A DNA stretch of 21,226 nucleotides from Neophaeotheca triangularis (Eukaryota): assembly GCA_054600435.1 (NCBI GenBank), contig BAAIJX010000073.1, positions 62,001 through 83,226 on the forward strand, in the 5' to 3' direction. The notes beneath the pieces were generated by a model, which was not told the origin of the DNA, made no database searches, and was given only the letters and a program-made list of their open reading frames with translations. How positions within the stretch are numbered: position 1 is the first letter of the stretch; every line of letters starts with the position of its first letter. Made by a program: the position numbers and the translations under genes. This document shows positions 3,278 through 21,226 of this stretch, in pieces.

Positions 3278-5125
3278 TCAGCCATCACGGACGGCATTGA
3301 TGTCTGCTGTGGGGATATCAACGTAGCTGCCAAACTCGCCACCGGTATGAATGACATGCCTACCGACATTGAGAATGCTCGGTTGTCCTAGTTGCTGGAA
3401 CTCAGGCTGCTTCTGACTGTTCCAGCCTTGGACCAACAGCGTTAGTGCGTCGCCAGGCTCGTATCGGATGGCAGTGGGCCAGAATGGAATGTCTACAGGG
3501 ACCGGTTCCTTTCCGAGGAATTCGGGAAAGTCGTGAGGATACTGGTAGATGCCGTTGGTGCCTTGCTTCCGGTAGTTGCGCAAGGATACTCGAGCACGGC
3601 CGTGCGCACCAATGTAAGTATCGGAACCCAAAACCTCAATGGGGATGACCTCCGAAGTAGTACTGTTCGACTTCTGCAAATAGCAGAATAGATCCATGTC
3701 ATCGAAATCCGGAGTCGAAACGTATAGGCGCGCTGTGGCATATCCGACAAAGTTAGTGGTCTCATTGAACTTTAAGCGGAAGGAGACGGTTCCATTCGCT
3801 GTCGAATTGTATGTCGTCGAGGCGACAACTCGAGGCTGCTCTGGAGACATGATTGTGTCACCGTGGGAAGCGTCGAGAAAGTAACGATTGGTTGCTGCGC
3901 GCGGTAGAGGAAAGTCTTGCTCTGGATGGTCCACAATGGAGTCATGCCCGGGGTTCAGCACGGAGAGCCTTACACGAGCCGTGTCTTCCCAATCGTTGTC
4001 GACGTTGTTCAGGTACTTGTCGAAGAACTTGTTCAGGTCTGCAACGTGTTCGGGAGTGTAGTAATCATGCCACTCGTGTGTCAAATGAGTACGTAGCCAT
4101 TTCTTGTTCTACCTCAATCTCTCCCATCCCTGGAAAGTTCCCAAAGTATGCAGGGCATTGGTCCACGAGCCGACGACGTAGATTGGAAGATTATCGTCAA
4201 TGTTCTCGATCTTGGCAGCTTTGTCTTGCCAGTACCCGTTGATGGTCGGCTGGCGATTCACCATGTTGGCAATGTTCTCGATCTGGTTGGAGCCGTTACC
4301 GTAAAGAGAGGTAACCAATAGCTCCGTGAAGACCGAGTTTGGAATGCCGCCGCGGAAGACTAGGTCTTCGTAAAAATCCGACCATCCCTCCCAAGGAGCG
4401 ATTGCAGCTAAATGGGGAGGGCGTTCGGAAGCAATCCACCATTGGGCAACAGTCAGCCACGAGTTGCCGGTCATTCCGACCTTGCCGTTCGACCATGATT
4501 GCTGAGCAAGCCACTCGATCAGATCGTACCCATCACGCGCATCTTGTTGGCCAAACATGAGCAGGTCTCCCTCGCTATAAAAGACACCGCGAGGGTCCGG
4601 ATGAATGACAGCATAGCCTTGGTTCACCCAGTACGCAGGATTCGGGCCTTCGAATTTTTCCAAGCCGGACATCCAGTCGTATCGGACACCCATGCGATCT
4701 TCAGCCGCGTTCGGTCGCTGGAATATGTCATAATTGAAGAATCCACCTCTTTTGCCATACGGTGAATAGGCCACGATGGCGGGTATGTTCTCGGCGAAAG
4801 TGGCATTGGCGGGGCGATAGATGTCCGTGTAGATAGTCGTGCTGTCGCGGAGTTTGACTGGGACGTCTGATTCAAATAAAATGTCGCAAGGCAGCGCCGG
4901 GTATTCATCCGACACAGGCTTGGAGCCCGCAGGCAACACTTTCGAGGTGCGATTAAAGGGTGTAGCGTTGGCCTCCGGAAGTTCGTACGATGAGGTGTTC
5001 GTGAAGCTTACTGAAACTCCGTTTATTACGTCTAGCTCTATACTTGACGTCAAGGATGAGCTGTCGCCATTAATAGAAAAAGCGGCGACAGTGCTCGCTA
5101 GTTGAAGAAGCCGAGTTAAATACAT
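3278..5125 (-). pseudogene. Secreted CocE/NonD-family (peptidase S15-like) alpha/beta hydrolase with one in-frame premature stop
   Basis: ORFs 4109-5125 and 3278-4084 are in the same frame, separated only by TAG at 4111-4109 (GWERLR*NKKWLRTHLTHEWHDYY). Signal-peptide-like MYLTRLLQLASTVAA; family motifs LRDSTTIYTDIYRP, YSPYGK, GYAVIHPDPRG, DGYDLIEWLAQQSWSNGKVGMTGNSW (nucleophile Ser), PPHLAAIAPWEG; C-terminal domain with DDMDLF and HVIHTGG. 615 codons if read through. Confidence 0.9.
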
Positions 5126-5229
5126 GGTGTAGTGTGAAAATATAGTCGGAAAGCGATAACTTGTAATGATTGAAATTATCTAGGATCCTCGCTTAGCACG
5201 GTGTCGGAATGTTCCGAGCCGAGCCGACA

Positions 5230-5445
5230 ATCCTCGACTCCTAGGTAGTCTTTAACTCCTATTCTAGGGTAAAGCTCAAAATGTATTTATTAAGATTATA
5301 ATGTTATACTTGCTTAAAACTAATAGAGCCTACTATAATAATAGAAAGTCTTTTAGGTATATTTCTTTATTAGCTCCTTATTAAAGCTAGGGTCTAGATA
5401 AGAAATTCTAAAGCTTTAGGTCTTATAAGACATAATATAGATAAT
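5230..5445. mobile_element. AT-rich, heavily RIP-mutated TE relic, family unidentified
   Basis: Abrupt switch to very AT-rich, TpA-rich, CpA/TpG/CpG-poor sequence with no ORFs. Boundaries approximate. Confidence 0.6.
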
Positions 5446-5690
5446 TGTTATAGCTATAGCGCTAATAGGACAATGGTAGCTTAGCTATAGAAAGCTTAGG
5501 AGTACTAAGTAATTATATAGTAAAAAGTATATAAGATAGCTAATAGAGAAGTCTCCTCTCTACTATGAAATAGTTTCTATATTAAAGGAGTATTACTATT
5601 ATTACTATTATTATGTTCTATCCTTACTATACTATAATACTAACTATGTTATAGTCTTAGTCTTATAATTCTATTTAGTCTTAGAACCTT
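5446..5690 (+). mobile_element. Degenerate 5' LTR plus PBS fragment of the same family as the Gypsy element at 16985
   Basis: Starts TGTTATAG and aligns to 16985-17230. In the ungapped block 5561-5690 vs 17101-17230 I count 33 mismatches in 130 nt, 28 of them transitions. LTR part is 5446-5667, followed by ~23 nt homologous to the PBS/leader. Confidence 0.9.
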
Positions 5691-5885
5691 CTTCAACACA
5701 GTTCTCTACCTATTTTAAATCAAATTGCCGTAATTTGGTCGTGGCATTATAGTTAGATTAATAATGGTCTAGCTGCTAAAAAAACACTAACTATTAATTA
5801 GGAGAACCGAAAGATAACCGGTTTATAACCGCTATCTATAGACCGATACCCTACTAAGGTATAGCTAGACCCTAACCTACCCCTT

Positions 5886-6581
5886 TTACCACTTCATCTA
5901 GAGCTCCTTCAAGGCTATTAGTACACGCCCCTACTCGGATGTACGCGACAGGATCTTACGCATTGCTAAGAGTTCGGTTAGTCATATGTGCTATTTAGGA
6001 GGGACTATAAGTCACTCTAGACTTACGCAAATGTATTGCTATGTGCGGTAGCCGTCATTAGCTTCGTATTATTGGCCAGATAACGCTAAAGACTCTTACC
6101 GGAACACCCGGATTCCCCTAGGAAAGGTGAGTATGATTTCAATTATAAGTGCTCGAGTGCTCGTCTAATACTTACAAGCGCAGATCCAACACAGTTCTCC
6201 ATGCATGTTAGTTTGCCGAAAGAAACACAGCGGTGTGAGCAATCATACCCCCATACACTGCGAGGAGGTCAGCCTTAGTCGACGTGGTTGTAGCGAGTAC
6301 TGTAGTATCGTACCAGACGGTCACCGTTCGCAGCGTCTCGCTATAGGCCTGTCAGCTACATGCTCGGAAGCATCGATGAGGATGCCTCGTACCCCGTAGC
6401 AGGAGTCCACACATTCATCCATACTGCCAAACACGATCTGCTTGCAGCCAGCTTCTTTGCCGTTCTCGCACTCGGGCTGGTCGCGGGCGAACAAGCCACC
6501 TGCGTAATCGACGACCGGGCCCGCAGAGGCGACGAGCATCAGTGGCGCGAGTGCCAGGAGAGAGGAGGAGCAGAATCGCAT
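5886..6581 (-). CDS. Small secreted Cys-rich, defensin-like (CS-alpha-beta-type) prepropeptide, ~97 aa, encoded by 8 exons (7 micro-exons)
   Basis: Exons 6581-6393, 6340-6314, 6257-6249, 6196-6176, 6117-6100, 6038-6027, 5965-5960, 5897-5886 (alternative last exon 5906-5898). Introns of 52-62 nt with donors GTACGA, GTACGA, GTATGA, GTAAGT, GTAAGA, GTAAGT, GTAAGA and branch motifs CTGAC/CTAAC/CTCAC/CTAAT. Spliced product: MRFCSSSLLALAPLMLVASAGPVVDYAGGLFARDQPECENGKEAGCKQIVFGSMDECVDSCYG|RDAANGDRL|CMG|NCVGSAL|GNPGVP|QYIC|QC|MKW*. Intron 3 needs a rare GAG acceptor. Confidence 0.8.
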
Positions 6582-6650
6582 GGTGCAAAGTGAAGCTCGA
6601 AGAATTGCTCGGTTGCTGGCTTGGATGAGGTTGGAAGAGGGCTTTCGGAC

Positions 6651-6664
6651 GGGCTATATAGCCC
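6651..6664 (-). promoter_or_regulatory. Putative TATA box inside a perfect 14-bp palindrome
   Basis: GGGCTATATAGCCC is its own reverse complement; the TATATA core lies ~75 nt upstream of the ATG at 6581. Confidence 0.5.
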
Positions 6665-7686
6665 ATTCAACAACACACGCCGCAACTCTGCTGTCTGACG
6701 CAACGAGGAGATCGGTGATGGCAACAGACGACGCATGCCCGTCGCGTGCCGCAACCACTCGTCAGGTGTTGAAAGGATCCGCCGTGGCATTCTCTTGCTT
6801 GCATACCGATTCGCCCGCCTGCTCCACGTCCGAGGACATGTAGACATGTTGCTCCTGCTGGCACCGCAATTCTGGCCCACGAGCCATGGCCGCGGAAGGG
6901 CTCAAGGCAGGAGCAGTGCACGTCAGGACACCAGCGTCAACCGTTTGCTCCATCTTCGACACCGTGCGGGCAGCTTGGATGCAAGTGAAGTGCACATTAG
7001 GTTCGGACACGACCCCGGATACCTGGGGTACGCAGTCGGATATCGCCAGACCCGCGGCCCCACAAGACCTGCATCTGGCGCCCTTAGCGGCAGCGGAGCA
7101 GATGGCAGCATCGCAGGGCAGGGTTGCAGGGTGGTACAATGGCTGCTCCATATTTGGCTGTCGGATTACCCTTTTCTACGAAATTGAATGCATGAAAAAT
7201 CCGCACGTGTCTCCTCCCTACTACATAGTTAGAGCCACTTCCGTCAACCCGGCCGCTCCGGCTGCTCCGGACGAACCTAAAACCTGCAGCGTCGAGGCTG
7301 GCGAAGTACTATTGATCGTGATACCATGGTGCCATGTACAAGTGACACCGGTTTCTCCGCCCACTGGTGTGTCGCGGGCCTGCCGACCCTGCCTTGTTGC
7401 ATTGCTACTGAAGCTTGCCAAACACCATTCGCATCTCTCACAGGCTGCAGTAGTCGAGCTACCGCGTCGGCTCTGCTCACAGGGCTCGTGGCCGCATCAC
7501 GAAGGACAAGTCCGCAGCGAGCAGCTGGGCGGCGGCCGTTCAGTCAGCCACGGAAGAGCCGTTTCGCTGGCGGGGGGTATATCATTTAATAGTGCAGGGG
7601 ATGCAGCTTCTCTCGCCCTCGACCACCTGCCAGACTTTCCGCCTTTGCGCTCGACTTCTCAATCCTCCCCCACCCCTTTGGCAAAC

Positions 7687-8248
7687 ATGTTCAGCAAAAT
7701 CGCCATTTTGATGTGGCCGGCAGCACTGGCCTCCGCCACCATCACCGCGAACCAGACGTCAGTTCCTGGATGGGTTCCCATGCCGTACCCCGACGGTGTA
7801 TTCGACTCCGACACCGACGCCGATGCCAGGCAAGTCGAACGCGGCTGATGCCATAGCCGACACGACGGTATGAAGGGTGGCAGCGAATGCTAATCATCGG
7901 CGAAGACTCGCTCCCTCTTGGAAGGTGACGTACGGATACAACGAGTGCGGCAACTACGAGACATACAACGGCATCAGGGCGTTCTACGAGTCCGCGGGAT
8001 GCACCGCCTTTCCCAGGCAACCTCAATGGGTTTGCTGGGAGAACCCACGGAACCCAGACGACAAGGACGGTCTGCCGTACTGGAACATGCTCATGTACTT
8101 CACCGGCGACGAGTGTCCGGTTATCGGACATACCTTTCAGTGCGATACGGTCGGGAGATATTGCGCTTGCTTCACGGGGAGTCGACCGCTCAGCTACAAC
8201 GTTGTGGATGCCACCACCGGAGTTCGAAACTGCGACGCTCCGTTTTGA
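7687..8248 (+). CDS. Small secreted Cys-rich protein (161 aa, 8 Cys), effector-like, with one GC-AG intron
   Basis: Exon 1 7687-7829 with signal peptide MFSKIAILMWPAALASA; intron 7830-7905 (AG|GCAAGT...GCTAAT...AAG|, 76 nt); exon 2 7906-8248. Splicing removes the in-frame TGA at 7846 and joins DADAR-LAPSWKVTYGYNEC in frame. Confidence 0.8.
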
Positions 8249-11424: not shown

Positions 11425-12360
11425 TACACCCTACTACCCTGCTCGGTGGTAGAACTGACTTATACCGGCAAAAAACGGTCCGTTTTACTAGCAAATTTAA
11501 ATTAGTGTTTTAGTGGTAGAACCGGGAATTTCGATATTTTAAGGTAAGGAATCGATTCCTAAGGGCTTAAATACCCTAGAAAACATATTAAAACATTAGA
11601 TTTACTTAAGTCTCTTAATAGGGTAGGGTAAAGGCCCTAGACCTTAGGATATAACCCTAATTTCTAAAAAGGGTAATTTTGTAAAATCTAAAGTTATAAT
11701 CTTCTTCTTTAGGGTCTATATAGCTACTTTATAACTTAAAAGTATAGGAATACCTAGTATAGTAATTAAATAATAGGGCTTTTAGATTAGAGTTAGAGAT
11801 ATTAAGGAACTTAGGCCTTATAAAATATAGGAGGGGTTTATACTTAATAGGAACTTTACTCTAGCCTTTTTTAGGGTTTAGGAATTCCTATACTAAGCCT
11901 ATATAAGTATTAAAGGATGTACTAAGGTTATTAAAGAATTAAATCTAGTTTAAAGTAAAGAATCTTAGGGATAACTAAAGTATTATAGGATTAATGTCTA
12001 GTATATATATGTAATAGTATTCTTAGGGTTTATATAGATCTTTAGCGATTAATAGAGTATATTAAAAGTCTCTTTATAGTAGTAGAGGCCCTTAGTAGTA
12101 CTAGTAAGACTAAATTAGAATAAGGTCTCTCTTACTAGTAAAGTACTTTAGGGACTATCTCTAGACTAGCGCTATTATATTAGACTACTACTACATTATA
12201 ATAGTATTTAAAAGGTCTTTAGGCTCCTAAGTAACTTAGCTTAAAGCTCTAGTAGTTTATTATAAGTTAAAGGGAAGTTAAGATATATAATAAATAAGGT
12301 AAAGTAGAAATAATAGGGAGTAATATATTATTATAAAGCAAATAAGATTAGGATATATAT
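11425..12360. mobile_element. Old AT-rich RIP-degraded TE relic, family unidentified
   Basis: Strong TpA excess, nearly no CpA/TpG/CpG in the core, no ORFs; begins ~15 nt into the third intron of the adjacent gene. Confidence 0.7.
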
Positions 12361-12660
12361 TGTCGAGCGGCGAGAGCACTCGAGAAGCCAGGAGACCAGT
12401 TTTACTTAGGGAGGTATTATTCATAATAGTTATAAACAATGTAGTAGGATTAGGAATCGGGTATAGTCGAGAATTAGGGATTATTCGTAATAGTTACGAA
12501 CAATGCGTTAGGGGTTAGAGATCAGTTAGGTTAGTCATAGTATATAGAGGCTAATTTAAGTAGTCGCAATTCATTCTATATATGTCTATCTAGGTAGGTG
12601 TCTAAGATGTAAGTACTAGTGTAGAGGGGAGGTATAGGTATATAAAGGGGGTAATAATAA
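12361..12660 (+). mobile_element. LTR-like fragment with an internal imperfect direct repeat
   Basis: Sharp compositional edge starting TGTCGAGC; direct repeat attattcataatagttataaacaatg (~12416) / attattcgtaatagttacgaacaatg (~12480); TATA-like TATATAGAG at 12541. Right boundary not determined. Confidence 0.4.
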
Positions 12661-12682
12661 AGCAAAAATACCGTAAAACCAG

Positions 12683-12927
12683 TATGCCCATAAATGTAGT
12701 ATAGGAGTCACTATAATATCCCTCTCTAGCTAGAAAGTCTCGTCACTCTATAGTAGCTATGCTACCCTCAAACTACTATCGAGTTCTCCTTAACCTACAT
12801 TTCCTCTATAAGCTCCTCCTATCCTACTAGTACTACTCCCCTCTTTCCTTTATCCTATAGTAGTAGAGTAGAACTAGAACTTTCCGAATAGTGTCGTGGT
12901 AACTCCTATACTACATTTATAGGCGTA
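12683..12927. repeat. 37-bp inverted repeat pair enclosing ~245 bp (MITE-like)
   Basis: 12683-12719 vs reverse complement of 12891-12927: 29/37 identical with a 19-nt exact core ATAAATGTAGTATAGGAGT; all 8 mismatches are transitions. Confidence 0.75.
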
Positions 12928-13043
12928 TATTACGATCCTATAAGGTAGTCTTATAGGTAGAGCTTATAGCGGAAGAGGAGAGATGTCGAAGAAGGCTGGT
13001 AAGGGTGTTTCCTTTATCGTAAGGATTTTAAAGATATGTGAAG

Positions 13044-13384
13044 TGTCGCTATAGACCTTTTAGTAAGATTATAACATGAGTTGAACACAAATCTCTACCT
13101 AGGAAATATCACTAGCTAAATACAAAAGAGATTCGTGTTAATCATCCTAATTAGTAGTGCTTAGTCCTATTGAGTGTCGCTAAGCAAGGAGCTACTTAGT
13201 ACTCGAGACTAATTAGTAGTGATCAGTTCAACTAAGCATTACTAAGCAAGAGGCTACTTAGTTCTTAGCATGCTTAGTTCTTAGCAAGCTCTATATACTT
13301 AGTCTCGGAGTCCTACTGTTAGCGCTTTTAGTCTTTATCTAATGATCTCTTCCTTCATGTCCTAGTTATGTGTTGTCTATAACA
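13044..13384 (-). repeat. 3' LTR of the minus-strand chromovirus
   Basis: Begins TGTTATAGAC right after the PPT, contains TATATAGAG (~13297) and short CTTAGTTCTTAGCA repeats; candidate end ...TATAGCGACA at 13044. No second LTR in the window to confirm its length. Confidence 0.6.
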
Positions 13385-13485
13385 CTATCCCTCTTCCAGC
13401 TTAGCGTCGTCTCGATGCTAATGTTATAAGTCTCGTAGCTCGCCCTACTTCTTCCTCCTTAGTTAAATCATGGTTTCCTCTTAGC

Positions 13486-14100
13486 ATGCCTAATAACTAG
13501 CCTGGCCATAGTACTATCCATCGTTGTGAATTAGCAACTTTTGTCGAAACTCATGGAAAGGATATAGTAAAGCTATATAGAACATGCTCTAAGCATAAAC
13601 ATATGTGTTAGGTCTATATTTAGTCAGGAAAGTGTAGCGAATGTCTTCGTTAGGGTTAGAGGTATAACCTCTAGGTTTCGTCATCAGAATAGGATAGGTT
13701 AAAGTAGGAGCAGACGAAACTCTAGTCATCTATTAAGGAAGCGTTCGAGGCATAACTCTCTACTCGCGTAGTAGAAGAAGAGGCTCGACGGGCTAAAAAC
13801 GCTACCTACGAGGCTTTATCTTCTACCTTTACTAAGGAATAGCGCTTACGTCGGCAACTCGATCTTCTAGAGAAACGAGAAGCAGAAGTAATAGCTATAG
13901 AGGAGGCTAGTATTAAGGCGGAAGAAGAGAAGGAGAAGGAGGGTAAGAACGCAATACTCCCTCTCGAGGATTTAGATCCTAGTCTGGGGATTATTCTTTC
14001 TCCTTCTATATAGAATGCGTTAGACAGCGGTTTTGATCTCTCGGCTAACTTCTAGAATTTTAGTACTAGCGATATTATTATAGGGCCTTCTAGTAGTTAA
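13486..14100 (+). pseudogene. Antisense extra ORF of the chromovirus: RIP-mutated Zn(II)2Cys6-like cluster, coiled coil and acidic tail (~204 codons)
   Basis: One frame from ATG 13486 to TAA 14100 with no frameshift, interrupted only by TAG/TAA. Codons at 13576 (TAT), 13585 (TGC), 13606 (TGT), 13633 (TGT), 13642 (TGT), 13663 (TAT) give C-x2-C-x6-C-x8-C-x2-C-x6-C if the two TAT were TGT. Followed by KE*RLRRQLDLLEKREAEVIAIEEASIKAEEEKEKE. Confidence 0.75.
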
Positions 14101-16984
14101 GTAGGTTGTCCTTAGGTTCCTAAGTGTTCTCGCTTATAGGATACCCTTTCCATTTTACGAGGTAGTTCTAACTATCTTTGTCTGAATCTTTTCAACCTCG
14201 TACTCGGTTTCTTCTTCTAGTAGATCATAGTAGAAGGTGTCTTAGATTAGTGTTTCGGTATCTACTAGTTCTAATAAGGATACATAGAATACTAGATAGA
14301 CTTTAGCGTCTCTTGGGAGTTAGAGGAGGTAGTTGACTTTTCCTCTTTATTCTTTAACTAGAAACGGTCTAACCTTGACATAGTCTAGTTTTCGTGTTCG
14401 TCTCCTTATCTTTAGGTTTTTCGTAAGTAAATACACCTTATCCCCCTTCTTAAGTTAAGGTGCCATTTTGGAGTCTTTATGTCTTTACGATTCGAGTCGC
14501 TACTATGACTATGTGATCTTGTCTTTCATCTGTTTATATACTTCCTATAGCTACGAAGACGTTTATAGGGCTCTTTCTACGAGCGGTCCTAGTTTTAGCT
14601 CTATAAAGGTATTCGGATCTTTTCTAAAGTTCGTGTAGAACGGAGTTATACCTGTCGTTTCTAAGGCATTGTTATTGAGTACGAGCTATACTATAGGTAA
14701 GAGTGCTACCTAATTATCCTGAGCATAATTGACGTAATGTTATAAGTACGTTTCGAGGGATTAGTTCGAGCGTTCTGTTTGTCTGTCGGTTTCTAGGTGA
14801 AATGCCATTAATAGCTTATATTTCACTCCGATTGCTAAAATTAAGGTCTTCTAGTAGTTAGATGTGAAGAGCTTATCTCTATCTATAATTAGAACTGTTA
14901 GAATGCTGTGGTATCGTACTAGTCTATTAAGAACAAGGTATCCGAGCTCTTCTATAGTGATTATCTCATTATAGGGAACGAAATGCGAATACTTCGTGAG
15001 TCTATCGACCATAACTAGAATTGAATCGTAGTCCTTACTTATTAACGGGTCCTTAGATCTTAGTAACTTAATGATAAAATCTATTATAACCTCGTTCTAT
15101 AGTAGATCTAGTAGCTCCTAGAATTGTAGGTTTCTATATTTAGCATGTCTCGAAGCTTTGTTTTATTAGTAGTTCGTACATTTCTTGATGTACTCTAAGA
15201 CCTTCTATCTCATTCTAGGGAACACGAAGTTACGTCTAATGTGTTCCACTATTCTAGCGATTCCTAGATATCTATTAGTAGGTCTATTATAGTAGTCCTA
15301 GATATACTAGTATTCTTTTTCATTTAGAACCCTGAACTTCCTATATTCGACAGGGAATTCTTTGATGTCATCCCTAAGTACTCGTAGTACTAAGTTAAAT
15401 TCCTAAGGGTTAGCGCTTAGGCTTCTATCCTTATTAACTTTCAGTATATAGTGTTACTATAGAAGGTGTCCTTCTATGTAGTCGCTTCTTCTACTTAGCG
15501 TGTCAGTATGCCTATTGTCCTTCCTAGGAGTATAGACTATGTCGAACTTGTATTGTCCGAGTAGCTCTAACTATCTACATTGTCGGCATAACAGTTCCTT
15601 AGTAGTTGTGAAATATTGTAGGTTCTTATGATCCGAGTAAATAGTCAGTCTAGTTACTCCTTCACAGTACACTCTCTAGTATCGTAATGCTATAACGATT
15701 ATGAGTAGTTCTTTATCGTAGATCTCGTAGTTTTGTTCTACTAGTGACATCTTCCTTAAGAAGTAAGCGATAGGGTATCGTTTGCTTTTAACCTCTTATG
15801 TAAGGTAAGCTCCTATTACTCTATCGGATGTATCGGTTTCGATTTAGATAGGTCTCTTAGGGTTAAACATCCTTAGCGTAAGGGTAGTTGTACATGACTC
15901 CTTAAGCTTATCGAAGGATTATTGTTAAATCTTTCCCTATATGAATGGTGTGTCCTTCTTTATAAGGTTAGTTAGAGGCATAGCGAGCCTTAAGTAATCC
16001 TACATGAATTTCCGATTGTAGTTAGCTAATCCAAGGAATGCTTAGATGTCTTTAACTGACTTGGGTGTCGGCCATTCCTTAATCGATTAGGTTTTCTTCG
16101 GGTCTATTCGGATCCTAGTAGTGCTAATTATAAAGCCTAGAAAGTCGACTTCCTTCTTATAGAACTCGTATTTCTCTAGTACTGTTCTGAAGTCTACTTT
16201 ATCGAGTCGTTCGAATACTATGTGTACGTCCTTAGTATACTATTCTCGTGATCCTTTCGTGAAGACTAGTATATCGTCGATATAGGCGATAATAGTGATA
16301 TCAAGTAGGTCTCGTAGGATGTTATTAACGAGTTGTTAACAGGTTGCTAGGGCATTCGTAAGTCCTATAGGCATAACCTAGAATTCGTAAAGTCCGTAGC
16401 GTATTCGAAAAGCTGTTTTCTACTCTTCCCCCCTTACCATTCTAACTAAGTAGAATGCATCTCGAAGATCGATTTTGGTGAACTAGTATGAACTAGTGAG
16501 TCGATCTCTTATCTCGTCGATGTTAGGTAGTAGATAACGGTTTTTAGTGGTAATCGCATTAAGTCGTCTGAAATCAATAACCATTCGTAGTTTTCCTCCT
16601 TTCTTCGGAATGAAAAACGGTAGTGAAGCGGCTAATAAAGTGGAGGGTCGAATCTATCCCTTCTTCATTTTTTTATCTAGCTATCGTCGTTACTCTTCGA
16701 GCTCTTTTTCGGATAGCGCGTAAAGTGGCCCCTATAGTATCTTTATACCGGGCTAAATGTCGATTCGGTAGTCCTATAGTTAATGTCTAGGTAGAGTGGC
16801 TACTCCTTCCTCTTCCTAGAAAAGGCGCTTCTATTTCCTGAATTCTCTAGGGATATCTAAAGGTACGTGACTTCCTTCCTCAACTCTTACCTATTAGTCC
16901 GTTTAGGCTAGTTCAGTACCTATAGAGTCCGATCTAATTCGTATTAGTATCATAGTCGATTGGCGATACGTTTTATTGATCTAC
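14045..16984 (-). pseudogene. pol: pol remnant (RT, RNase H, integrase, chromodomain) of the chromovirus
   Basis: RT IIAYIDDILVF (YIDD 16284-16273); RNase H ETDTSD (~15840); integrase ETDRQTER (~14790); chromodomain EYEVEKI / YLVKWKGYPISENT*EPKDNL (~14205-14100). Many TAG/TAA stops. Confidence 0.92.
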
Positions 16985-17207
16985 TATCACGACCGCGGCG
17001 CTAGCAGGACATCGGCGGCCTAAGCTACGGAGCAGCTCGGGAGTGCCAAGCGCACACACTACGAGAGTATATGAGATGGCTAACAGTGAAGTCTCCTGTC
17101 TGCCATCGAATAGTTTCTATATCAAAGGACTGTTACCGTTATTACCATTATTACGTTCCGCCCTCGCTATACCGTGATCCCGACCGAGTTATAGTCTCGG
17201 TCTTACA
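16985..17207 (+). repeat. 5' LTR (223 bp)
   Basis: Starts TATCACG (TG in the homologous copy at 5446, so probably TGTCACG originally) and ends GGTCTTACA; left boundary fixed by alignment to the 5446 copy; TATA-like TATATGAG at 17068. Confidence 0.82.
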
Positions 17208-17210
17208 ATT

Positions 17211-17219
17211 CTATTCGAT
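17211..17219 (+). promoter_or_regulatory. Self-priming-type primer binding site
   Basis: CTATTCGAT, 3 nt after the LTR end, is the exact reverse complement of ATCGAATAG at 17105-17113 inside the LTR; there is no TGG-type tRNA PBS. Confidence 0.65.
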
Positions 17220-17256
17220 CACAGAACCTTTTCAGGTTAAGATTCGCTTAGACATC

Positions 17257-18411
17257 ATGGTACTATCGCGCTCGCTACGCCCTCGGGTTGACGACGCTGA
17301 CCTAGCGGACTCCCCTAACACTATGACCGGAGTCAACACCCCGTAAGAACAAGAAGAGGCAGCGACGGACCAATACACGGTCCTTACTGCCGCTATCGCG
17401 GAACTCCGACAACAATTGGCAGAGCGTATAGCGCCTGTTCAGCGAGCCACTAATGGAGCGACGGTCCCCCGCGACGAGTCCGAAAGAGGACATATCGAAC
17501 CGGAGGACCCGGCAGACATTGCCCCTGCCCTAGTAGTACGCAAGTGGACGGTAGACGAAGATCTACCCGCCGGCATAATAATGAAGGAGCGAAAGTCTCA
17601 CATCGATATCGAGAAAGCTTTTCGCTCGGCCGAACCAGCGGTTTATAGGAGTCACCCTAACCTCCTAAAAGCATAGACGTTCATCTAGCAATGTGAGCGT
17701 GTGTTTAAGACGTACCCTTATGTTTACTTTTATTAGTACGAGCGTGTCTAGTACGCCGCGGGCCGCCTATGCGGCCGCGTCGGCTAGAACTAGGAGAGCA
17801 AAGAATCACGACTCGAACGCGAAGAGATGAAATGGCCTATGTTTAAAGAATGGCTACTAGATCAGATCCTCGACCCCGAAAACCGCGCCATGAACATGGC
17901 GTTTCGAGGCTTCCGACACGTGTAGGGACCGACCTAATCTATTCACGACTACCTCTCGCACGTTGAAGACTCTCTCCGCGAGGCCGACGTCGCCCCGCTG
18001 CCGGAGTATACGCTCCTAACCCTTATCAAGACAGGTTTGCGGGAGAATCTCAAGGCTAAGCTGAATGCCTAGCTGACAGTGCCGGATAACCGCCACGACC
18101 TCGTCGCGCTTTGTACGCGCCTCGACGATGCGAGCCGTAGCGGCCGGGACACTAGAGGCGAGACAGCGGACAAGCCACGCAAGACCGACTTAAGAGGTTC
18201 CGGCTATAGGAAAAGAGAACAAAACCAGAGTATAAGCGATAACAACTCCAAACTGCGCCGCTAGCGTACCGATAGAACACTAGCGACTAGTGTGAACCGC
18301 ATAGGTACGATTAACGGTGGCGAACGAAACAAAGCCCTCGAAGAAAACCTCTGTTTCAAGTGCGGCAGTAAAGGCCACTGGCAAGAAAATTGCTGAAAGG
18401 GAAAAGCTTAG
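17257..18411 (+). pseudogene. gag: gag remnant
   Basis: One frame from ATG 17257 with several TAA/TAG/TGA stops; WPMFKEWLLDQILDPENR capsid-like segment; zinc knuckle CFKCGSKGHWQENC (~18352-18393). Confidence 0.9.
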
Positions 18412-18450
18412 CCCTAGGTCATTCAATTGTTAGCCTTAAAGGCTTAGGGC
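18399..18450 (+). promoter_or_regulatory. Putative -1 programmed ribosomal frameshift signal
   Basis: G GGA AAA (18399-18405) in X XXY YYZ phase of gag; 5-nt spacer; stem GCCCTAGG (18411-18418) pairing with CTTAGGGC (18443-18450); pol is in the -1 frame. Confidence 0.75.
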
Positions 18451-21106
18451 GATAAGTAGGCGCTACGCTGACGGAGCGCCTATGGGCTGTCGTAAAGATA
18501 TGCGATCGAACCTGCGACGGGCTACGTTTCGAGGCCCGCGGGCTTATCGACACGGGAGCGCATTACAATGTCATCTCGGAAGACATCGCGGTCCGGTATA
18601 ACCTGCCGATAAAGGGCGACCGGATTCGTAGGCTACGAGCCTTCGGCGACGTCGAAGCCCCGATAGTAGGCCGATGTCGACTCTATACTGAAGTCGCTAA
18701 TTTAGACGGTATGGTTCAGACTATTCTGCAAATGTTCGAAGTAGTGAACTAGAAGGATTACGAAATGATTCTTGGAATGCCTTAGATCCGATCCGTAAAA
18801 GCACAGCTTGATTTCGCGTCGCCGCTAGTGTAGTGGCGCTATAGCGGCGTGTATAACAAAGAAGAAGTTGAAATCATCGAGGCCGAAGAACTAGCCTAAG
18901 ATATTGACGGTGGAGCACCTATCCTCGCCGTCAGCGCAGAAGACCTACGCGGGGCCCCGGCGGAGCTATAGGTGCCTAAGTGGTTAGCGGAGTACGCCGA
19001 GGTGTTTAAATCGGAGAAGGCGAAAGAGTTACCTCCGCATATGCTTCATGACCACTATGTCGAACTGGTCGAGGGAAAACAACCTCCTAGTAGACTAATC
19101 TACCCATGTTCCGAGCCGGAGCTCGAGGAAATGTAGTCGTAGATTAATAACCTGCTCGCGACGGACCGCATCGAGCCTAGTACTAGCCCTGCCAGCGCAC
19201 CGTTACTGTTCGTTAAGAAGAAAAACGGCAAACTCTACATGTGCGTCGATTACCGAGGCTTGAACGAAATCACTATTAAGAACAAGCATCCTTTACCGCT
19301 TATTGGTGAACTCTTAGATAGGGTCCGCGGATCAACGTGGTTTTCGAAAATCGACCTAGTCGAAGCATACTACCGTTTACGCATCGCCTAGGGCGACGAG
19401 TGGAAGACGGCGTTCCGCTATTAGTACGGCCATTTCCAATACAAGGTCATGCCTTTTAGACTCGCTAACGTACCGGCGTCGTTTCAGGCCTTTATCAATA
19501 AGGTACTTATAGAGCTAGTTAACCACTACTACGTGGTATACATGGATGACGTTCTCATCTATTCCCGCACCGAAGTAGAACATCGCGAACACGTTCGAGC
19601 GGTCTACTATCGGCTCGCCGACGCCGAGCTGTATGCTAGTCTCGAGAAATGCGAATTCATGGTCCGAGAGATTAGATTCCTCGGTTTCGTCATTAACTCC
19701 ACTAGAGTAGCGATAGAGCCCCCATGGGTAGCCGCAGTCTAAGATTAGCTGATACTAAAGTCCTTAAAAGAACTCTAAGTGTTCCTAGGATTCGCGAATT
19801 TCTATCGTCGCTTTATCGAGGGATATACAAAGATCACCGCTCCCCTTACAGACCGCCTATAGCACAGCGGCGGTGAATGGTAGCCACTAAGTGAAGATGC
19901 CCAAAAATCCTTTGAAAGGTTAAAGCACAGCTTCATTTCAGCACTAGTGCTACGGCACTTTAACGCTACGCTAGAGACCCGCCTTGAGACCGATACATCA
20001 GGATACGCATTAGGAGGCATCCTCGCGTAGAAGCACTCGGACACGCTATAGTATCCGGTCGTATATTACTCTAAGAAGCTTAAAGGGCTAGAGTTACGAT
20101 ATCTAGTGCACGATCAGGAACTACTCGCCATCGTCGAGGCGACGCGCTAGTGGCGGCACTACATATTGTCGGCTAAGAGTAAAGTTCAGGTGCTTACAGA
20201 TCACAACAATCTAAAGTACTTCCTATCGACAAAGAAATTGTCGGGCCGCTAAGCGCGCGCTGCGGAAGAGCTGTCGCAATACGACATCGAGATTACATAC
20301 CGTGAAGGTAAATCAAACCCCGGAGCAGACGGGCTCTCGCGCCGTCCTAACATGGAGGCCGATAGAGAATTAAGTGGGGCGGAAATGCTACCTACATTGA
20401 CTAGGCTTTTCGCTCCCCTAGCGGGCCCCTATAAGGCCGCCGAAGTTCCGGCGAGTAGCCACACGATGGCCGCCGAAGATAGAGCAGAGATCCTGTCTAT
20501 GTCGCCGGGGTACGTAGCACCGGTAAACCACCGGGCGTTAGCCGCCTCGCTAGCGGGCTACACGGTGGCTGCCGGAGACACCGGTCCTCTAAACAATAAG
20601 CTTTAGAGTAATGATACTGTACACACTAAGCGAAAGCTCTAAGGGGGAGGTAAACCAAACCTGACTAGCTCCGTCGCTATAGTAGCGCCGACCTATCATG
20701 ACCCTATAGGTAAGTAGCTAGGTATACTCGCTATCACTAAGCTAGACATTAGAGAGCCTAACGTGGCGGTGGACCGAATCGACCTTAGAGCGGATGTGTT
20801 GCGCGTATAGTAGGGAGACCCCTTTGCTAAACGCATTCGTAAAGAGATCGACGAGGGACAGCACTATAGAGATGCTAACGGCGCCGCGCCTACGTGGTCG
20901 GTTAGTTTTATGGGACTTCTTAAGATTAATGGAAAGGTGTATATGCCGCCGGTAGAAAGCCTACAGGCCGCCGTGCTAAGCTACTGCCACGAGGACCTAT
21001 TAGTGGGACACCCGGGGGTAGGGAAGACTAAAGCCGTTTTCCACAAGGAGTTTTGGTGGTCTAAGTGGACTAAGGATGTCGAAGAGTATGTCCTTAGGTG
21101 TGACAA
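18399..21106 (+). pseudogene. pol: pol remnant (protease, RT, RNase H, integrase N-terminal zinc-binding domain), truncated
   Basis: LIDTGAHYNVIS (DTG 18549-18557), VVYMDDVLIYS (YMDD 19539-19550), LETDTSGYALGG, ADGLSRRP, and CHEDLLVGHPG...DVEEYVLRCDK ending at the telomere; motifs checked fall in one frame, with many nonsense codons. Confidence 0.95.
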
Positions 21107-21226
21107 AGGGTTAGGGTTAGGGTTAGGGTTAGGGTTAGGGTTAGGGTTAGGGTTAGGGTTAGGGTTAGGGTTAGGGTTAGGGTTAGGGTTAGGGTTAGGG
21201 TTAGGGTTAGGGTTAGGGTTAGGGTT
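21107..21226 (+). repeat. Telomeric repeat tract (TTAGGG)n
   Basis: AGGG + 19 perfect TTAGGG + TT to the window end, with the G-rich strand running 5'->3' toward the end. Confidence 0.98.

Follow-up and report, generated by a model that had tools for sequence, protein, structure and literature searches.

The window, a 21,226-nt stretch of Neophaeotheca triangularis DNA to which all positions below refer, carries on its minus strand a gene with a run of micro-exons, which starts at an ATG at position 6581 in a CACC-ATG context. It is a fungal gene that encodes an acidic peptide with eight Cys residues, is mis-annotated in the public record and has few relatives, all of them unannotated; its product is probably secreted. 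RNA letters from the locus show that a pre-mRNA started upstream loses introns of 52–61 nt, so that exons of 27, 9, 21, 18 and 12 nt come to follow a 189-nt exon directly; two further introns (61 nt, and 53 or 62 nt), an exon of 6 nt and a terminal exon of 9 or 12 nt would complete the message. We hold with high confidence that this is a real, expressed and stand-alone Dothideomycete gene for a small, probably secreted Cys-rich peptide, built mostly from micro-exons. The coordinates of its parts are collected in Table 1.

Exon chain, intron signals and spliced RNA

A preliminary description of this locus, made from the sequence by itself, had proposed that a first exon of 189 nt is followed by micro-exons of 27, 9, 21, 18, 12, 6 and 12 (or 9) nt, all separated by phase-0 introns. 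The chain was rebuilt on the minus strand from these exon lengths and was recovered as proposed. The seven introns measure, in order, 52, 56, 52, 58, 61, 61 and 53 or 62 nt; all of them have GT..AG borders and all lie between codons (phase 0). The six internal exons are all at most 36 nt long, multiples of three and symmetric (0-0). With a last exon of 12 nt, the micro-exons contribute 105 of the 294 nt of coding sequence (36%). The ORF finder, starting from the same ATG, gives instead a read-through ORF of 86 aa (6581..6321).

The same description had stated that evenly sized introns of 52–62 nt carry donor and branch motifs, and both were found in seven of seven introns. A CTRAY-like branch motif stands 10–20 nt before the end of every intron, the version in intron 4 being CTCAC, and the branch A lies 11 nt from the acceptor in introns 1, 2 and 3 and 10 nt from it in intron 4. 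Intron 1 passes over an AG that follows its branch by only 3 nt. For each of introns 1–5, a single GT..AG length within 35–120 nt sets the next exon before a GT; two lengths fit for intron 6, and 11 AG ends are possible for intron 7. Whichever of the four nearest acceptors intron 7 uses, the frame ends within three codons. The 53-nt version, with an AAG acceptor at 5907, is favored because it keeps the 11-nt distance between branch A and acceptor found in introns 1–3, and also because, like intron 1, it passes over an AG that stands 3 nt past the branch. Thus, intron 7 should be 53 nt long and the last exon 9 nt, coding for two residues and the stop, and under both versions of intron 7 the protein would end directly after a terminal C-x-C.

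The frequency of such chains was analyzed in shuffled DNA. An intron-like segment was defined as a donor GTRNGH, a length of 45–75 nt and a CT[ACG]A[CT] motif 6–32 nt before the terminal AG, and a chain as a series of such segments joined by stop-free exons of 3–30 nt in multiples of three. The real sequence gives a chain of seven. The longest chain in 2000 dinucleotide-preserving shuffles of positions 5886–6392 was 0 (998 shuffles), 1 (979), 2 (22) or 3 (a single shuffle); 100 shuffles of the minus strand over the full window gave a longest chain of 1 (84 shuffles) or 2 (16). With a relaxed branch motif, neither strand of the window showed a further chain of at least three. With a stricter branch motif, 19 distinct intron-like donors were counted on both strands of the window, and six of them belong to this gene. 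Phase-0 introns account for about 40–45% of fungal introns, and at that share seven phase-0 introns out of seven are unlikely to have arisen by chance (well under 1%).

RNA from the locus was found in a single run (X1), a metatranscriptome labelled as marine metagenome that contained 0.17 of the sampled words, and positions 5600–6900 were examined. One RNA contig of 271 nt (depth 3.6), of the 99+% identity class, matches the locus. In minus-strand order, it follows 6553..6393 without differences, skips exactly 6392..6341 (GT..AG) and resumes over 6340..6314. After exon 2, the alignment shows three letters lying between pieces, which are the start of exon 3, and then a 28-letter piece placed on 6202..6175. 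Intron 3 and exon 3 end in six letters each (6197–6202 and 6249–6254) that are alike except at one position. This likeness led the aligner to put the end of exon 3 on the end of the intron, creating a false non-canonical joint (GC..AC, 'skips 111'), and the six misplaced letters plus the three in between leave exactly 9 letters between exons 2 and 4, as modelled. The contig closes with a loose end of 52 letters, 30 of which were read; they correspond to the rest of exon 5, the whole of exon 6 and then a C. Because a retained intron 6 would give a G at that point, the C indicates that the donor of intron 6 was used. Three other downstream sites at which AG is followed by C fit junction 6 formally, but without a normal branch distance. 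Alignment to RNA had been put forward as a check of the junctions, and on this evidence junctions 1–5 are seen and junction 6 is consistent. Since five segments are exactly removed at GT..AG borders, neither DNA nor an assembly accident can be the source of the contig. The word share of 0.17 corresponds to 131 of 771 words of 31 letters, that is, to the colinear exon-1 part of the contig, so nothing else from the locus is present in that run. No RNA cover was found within 5600–6900 beyond the one contig, which is uninformative either way.

These data also bear on whether splice-like motifs could have formed the chain by accident beside DNA altered by repeat-induced point mutation (RIP), which is rich in TAG, CTAA and GTAAG, in which case the product would be the 86-aa ORF or nothing at all. 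The 3' end of the gene does abut such DNA, ending at the edge of an AT-rich block (5130–5880) with a GC content of 0.32, a TpA/ApT ratio of 1.6 and a (CpA+TpG)/(ApC+GpT) ratio of 0.43, a RIP-type signature, and every database homologue is listed as a read-through ORF. Nevertheless, the shuffles never exceeded a chain of three where the real one has seven, the spliced RNA contig contradicts a chance arrangement, the homologues diverge completely just past the first donor, and the read-through ORF would leave five Cys residues after the F-A-R sequence of its N-terminal part, an odd number. We therefore consider a chance origin scarcely credible.

Homologues and the public gene model

A phmmer search over 1.84 billion cluster representatives retrieved seven proteins at E ≤ 0.001 (best value, 1.2e-15), whereas one of four candidates passed in a word-indexed search and eight of 866 in a profile search. 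The eight homologues, of 62–92 aa, are all unspliced ORF calls, and none of them has a name or a Pfam domain. They align over exon 1, in which 12 columns are invariant after the initial Met; across the nine sequences, the invariant columns of the alignment are M1, A20, R33, D34, Q35, P36, C38, G41, C46, C57, C61, Y62, G63 and V64. The similarity among the nine then stops abruptly after V64 (in C-Y-G-V). This valine is the donor GTN read through, which means that a GT stands at the same place in nine loci with unrelated sequence beyond it, and a conserved GT followed by unrelated sequence is what an intron predicts. No paralogue was found in the window by tblastn. One further DNA locus, the only one of 79 pattern-matching stretches to pass (L001, with a narrower alignment), was rejected: its match is confined to 22 residues at the searched pattern, and it was judged a chance match in GC-rich DNA, with no start codon, signal-like stretch or C-Y-G around it.

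The public annotation of the locus is an NCBI model of 671 aa (P0009), 'hypothetical protein MBLNU230_g7712t1 [Neophaeotheca triangularis]', with Peptidase_S15 and PepX_C domains, which is 100% identical to the 86-aa ORF over that query. The model reads 6581..6324, retaining intron 1, and then 6256..6176, which takes exon 3 in another frame and runs through intron 3 into exon 4. From there on, it shares introns 4, 5 and 6, the two exons between them (5 and 6) and the exon-7 acceptor with the micro-exon model, and the choice of introns 4–6 by an independent gene finder is a support for the chain. It then reads past the GTAAGA donor of intron 7 in favor of a weak GTCGCG one, from which an intron of 939 nt spans AT-rich DNA as far as 5010, an acceptor that falls inside the neighboring ORF for a hydrolase of the S15 / CocE-NonD type. 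The preliminary description had expected a gene of this build to be easily missed by ORF and gene finders, in agreement with a chimeric NCBI model and with homologues that are unspliced ORF calls in eight of eight cases.

That the NCBI model could be right in outline, the Cys-rich part being the N-terminal domain of a 671-aa S15/CocE-NonD hydrolase fusion, would be suggested by the fact that it joins both loci, but we regard this as very improbable. In the RNA, intron 1 is removed, exon 2 is in another frame than in the model, and there is no read-through from exon 3 into intron 3. The model also ignores the strong GTAAGA donor for the weak GTCGCG one, and its 939-nt intron over RIP-degraded DNA compares with confirmed introns of 52–61 nt. 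Moreover, the hydrolase ORF starts from an ATG of its own, with a hydrophobic N-terminus; it begins to match a CocE/NonD hydrolase structure at residue 81 of the ORF against residue 37 of the chain, and its solved relatives (560–587 residues) have no extra N-terminal domain of this kind. We take the fusion of peptide and hydrolase to be an annotation artefact. As a side observation, the NCBI model removes about the first 38 residues of the hydrolase.

Table 1. Features of the micro-exon locus and of the adjacent hydrolase gene (positions in the window)
Feature	Position	Strand	Description and evidence
TATA-like element	6655..6660	-	TATATA within a short palindrome, 74-79 nt 5' of the ATG; read from sequence; putative promoter role
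Exon 1, 189 nt	6393..6581	-	ATG; residues 1-20 signal-like (6581..6522); FAR (to 6483); first four Cys; CxxxC then YG
Intron 1, 52 nt	6341..6392	-	GTACGA..CTGAC..TAG; exactly removed in RNA contig; donor GT kept in 9/9 sequences
Exon 2, 27 nt	6314..6340	-	RNA contig, 0 differences
Intron 2, 56 nt	6258..6313	-	GTACGA..CTGAC..CAG; missing from RNA contig
Exon 3, 9 nt	6249..6257	-	One Cys; RNA contig, 9 letters between exons 2 and 4
Intron 3, 52 nt	6197..6248	-	GTATGA..CTAAC..GAG, unusual GAG acceptor; missing from RNA contig
Exon 4, 21 nt	6176..6196	-	One Cys, in G-x-C; RNA contig piece 6175..6202; donor also used by NCBI model
Intron 4, 58 nt	6118..6175	-	GTAAGT..CTCAC..TAG; RNA loose end goes straight into exon 5; also in NCBI model
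Exon 5, 18 nt	6100..6117	-	RNA contig loose end; NCBI model
Intron 5, 61 nt	6039..6099	-	GTAAGA..CTAAT..TAG; missing from RNA loose end; also in NCBI model
Exon 6, 12 nt	6027..6038	-	One Cys; RNA contig loose end; NCBI model
Intron 6, 61 nt	5966..6026	-	GTAAGT..CTAAC..TAG; RNA, donor used and acceptor by one letter; same intron in NCBI model
Exon 7, 6 nt	5960..5965	-	One Cys, completes terminal C-x-C; predicted; first letter in RNA; same acceptor in NCBI model
Intron 7, 53 nt	5907..5959	-	GTAAGA..CTAAT..AAG; predicted; a 62-nt version ends at 5898 with TAG
Last exon with stop	5886..5906	-	Predicted: 5906..5898 (two residues + TAG) or 5897..5886 (three residues + TAA)
S15 / CocE-NonD hydrolase gene (Peptidase_S15 + PepX_C)	3281-5125	-	Own ATG at 5125; in-frame 102-nt intron 4174..4073 containing a stop

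The encoded peptide

The spliced protein has 97 residues with the 12-nt last exon and 96 with the 9-nt one. Its N-terminus, read by eye, opens with a short charged stretch, continues with a hydrophobic core and shows A-x-A ahead of residue 21; it is followed by a family-conserved segment that ends in F-A-R. The 64 residues past this point contain eight Cys separated by gaps of 7, 10, 3, 11, 3, 14 and 1 residues, and have a pI of 4.4 and a net charge of about -4.3. Four of the Cys are encoded in exon 1 and one each in micro-exons 3, 4, 6 and 7. Along the chain, a CxxxC is followed 11 residues on by a second CxxxC, then by a G-x-C, a last long gap with a central G-N-P-G and the terminal C-x-C, so that the eight mature Cys with the CxxxC, GxC and terminal CxC motifs that had been announced are present after FAR in the spliced product. 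When exon 1 was folded by itself, the mean pLDDT was 57, and the only helix predicted, at residues 54–62 over the CxxxC, reached about 70. The search of the 86-aa ORF against Pfam gave no family at E up to 10, and the best Protein Atlas scores, 0.79 and 0.75, were under the useful level.

The best conserved part of the family is the consensus L-F-A-R-D-T-Q-P-x-C before the first Cys (6483–6500). This stretch is more conserved than most of the Cys-rich part, which is unusual for a mere pro-peptide and hints at a processing or recognition site.

As a mechanism, we propose that introns surrounding exons this small are recognized one by one (intron definition) and probably removed in sequence; at the 6-nt exon, the acceptor of one intron would nearly touch the donor of the next. 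A product of 95–97 residues would then enter the endoplasmic reticulum by means of its N-terminal signal, which may be cut near residue 20. Its eight Cys could form four disulfides, trimming might occur at the family-wide A-R-D-x-Q-P motif, and the result would leave the cell as an acidic peptide of roughly 7 kDa. Our best guess is that it acts outside the cell as a disulfide-knotted peptide directed against, or signalling to, other microbes.

Several points weigh against the reading of the locus as a spliced gene for a secreted peptide. All RNA support comes from one metatranscriptome run and amounts to a single consensus contig of low depth; the letters read reach neither end of the transcript, nor junction 7, nor the stop codon, and for junction 6 they supply one letter. 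In the 28-letter piece that spans exons 3 and 4 there are two differences, of which the decoding given above accounts for one. The homologues are known as protein ORF calls, and the micro-exon chain was read in this locus alone. As for the product, its signal peptide and FAR cleavage are putative features recognized by eye, and no homology supports any function (no Pfam family, and Atlas scores that are too low).

The preliminary description had also labelled the peptide as defensin-like. A cysteine-stabilized alpha-beta (CS-alpha-beta) defensin-like antimicrobial peptide would be compatible with the gene model, as a sub-hypothesis about fold and role, and we consider it possible but rather doubtful. 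Six of the eight Cys fit the framework C..CX3C..C..CX1C, which is described in PMC5234102 as a prerequisite for the CS-alpha-beta fold. The G-x-C and the terminal C-x-C flank the 14-residue stretch with its central G-N-P-G, an arrangement that would suit a beta-hairpin, and a helix is predicted, with low confidence, over the CxxxC. Such a cystine framework is necessary but not sufficient, and the searches with exon 1 returned no defensin among 12 PDB rows and no Pfam family. Most antimicrobial defensins are cationic, in contrast with the acidic character of this peptide. Known fungal defensins generally have shorter loops, and two CxxxC motifs 11 residues apart suit a helical hairpin equally well.

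A comparison with fungal defensin-like peptides (fDLPs) leads to a similarly divided picture. The locus resembles them in a signal-like N-terminus, a possible pro-region and a small Cys-rich mature part, and also in the cystine framework with G-x-C and in introns that favor the 3' part. In contrast, it has seven introns, an acidic product, an extra Cys pair and longer loops, and no sequence match was found with the exon-1 part that was searched. In PMC4165938, fungal defensin-like genes are reported with 0–2 introns, which tend to lie in the 3' part of the precursor, so the seven introns found here set the locus apart from the genes described there.

The exon-1 profile gave 12 PDB rows at E values of 0.83–2.7, the chance level, ten of them of Kunitz type. 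The spacing C-x7-C-x10-C-x3-C of exon 1 resembles the last four Cys of bovine pancreatic trypsin inhibitor, but the remaining Cys come after this segment and not before it. A Kunitz assignment was not adopted, given chance-level E values and the different order of the Cys.

Micro-exon genes in other organisms and genomic surroundings

The architecture had been likened to that of the micro-exon genes (MEGs) of schistosomes, and the likeness stands for the run of symmetric micro-exons and fails for intron length and for the micro-exon share of the coding sequence. According to bioRxiv 10.1101/2023.06.21.545858, MEGs are specific to Schistosomatidae, carry most of their coding sequence in 10–20 short symmetric exons, have introns of 0.1–5 kb and give documented exon-skipping isoforms. 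The fungal gene shares with them a signal or signal-like region on a longer first exon, the run of symmetric short exons, a small product that is secreted (here by prediction) and poor handling by automatic annotation. It differs in its introns of 52–62 nt as opposed to 0.1–5 kb and in its seven micro-exons, which represent 36% and not most of the coding sequence, and the two are unrelated in sequence.

The preliminary description had further suggested that the symmetric micro-exons serve to make in-frame isoforms with different sets of Cys by exon skipping, as in schistosome MEGs. The seven phase-0 introns out of seven and the six internal exons out of six that are multiples of three, unlikely as they are by chance at the phase-0 share given above, would fit such a purpose, as would the placement of each of the four C-terminal Cys on its own micro-exon. 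No skipped form was seen, since the only RNA contig holds exons 2–6 in full, although this is weak evidence because a consensus contig is blind to rare forms. Skipping exon 3, 4, 6 or 7 singly would leave an odd number of Cys. We consider the skipping explanation unlikely.

Very short exons have been described in other fungi. According to PMC12230235, Coprinopsis cinerea has 1,165 gene models with an internal exon of at most 15 nt, some of 1–3 nt, and PMC11121469 reports a 20-nt switch exon in Xlr2 of Trichoderma virens. These resemble the present exons in that very short internal exons stand beside short introns, are spliced and are often missed by gene models. The cases described there are, however, single micro-exons in ordinary genes, and C. 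cinerea is a basidiomycete, whereas here six consecutive phase-0 internal micro-exons build the C-terminal third of a small peptide in a Dothideomycete. The open-access literature searched yielded no fungal gene made up of consecutive symmetric micro-exons, and in the papers that pair the word 'microexon' with fungal effectors the term designates only an option of a read mapper.

Genes of filamentous ascomycetes usually have few introns. The gene described here indicates that consecutive symmetric micro-exons, so far tied to the MEGs of flatworms, also occur in a filamentous ascomycete lineage, and it offers a compact natural test case for intron-definition splicing with splice sites that nearly touch. 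It also illustrates that annotation misses or mis-joins small secreted Cys-rich peptides of this build, and screens of fungal genomes for secretomes, effectors or antimicrobial peptides may overlook such genes. As a long shot, the locus could be the first recognized case of a fungal equivalent of the MEGs, a small family of secreted peptides in Dothideomycete-like fungi (nine members in this analysis) in which each C-terminal Cys sits on its own symmetric micro-exon of 6–21 nt and the in-frame skipping of paired exons switches disulfides; if so, it would have escaped notice because ORF calling ends at the first donor and gene finding mis-joins the rest.

Two origins of the exon-intron units were considered and rejected. 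For tandem duplication, only two tandem arrays (16–20 nt) were found, and the introns share little beyond their splice motifs, with pairwise alignment scores of at most 7. For an introner-like origin, no intron match longer than 16 nt was found elsewhere in the window, and the fold z-scores ranged from -0.95 to +1.54. A scan for promoters and terminators of bacterial type was uninformative for fungal DNA.

Upstream of the micro-exon gene and divergent from it, a 334-codon ORF (6844–7848, plus strand) shares with it an upstream region of about 300 nt and has no Pfam match. A second AT-rich block of RIP type extends over 11500–17000, and across both blocks the GC content is 0.32–0.37, the TpA/ApT ratio 1.6–1.65 and the (CpA+TpG)/(ApC+GpT) ratio 0.43–0.46. 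The RIP signature, together with short introns that carry branch sites of CTAAC type, fits a Pezizomycotina genome. N. triangularis is a Dothideomycete and is described as marine-derived, with finds in deep-sea sediment. At the far end of the window, an ORF that runs off its edge (20814–21224, plus strand) matches Integrase_H2C2 (E = 6.4e-14), the surrounding 4 kb (17001–21226) show a partial RIP signature, and this region is probably a degraded retrotransposon.

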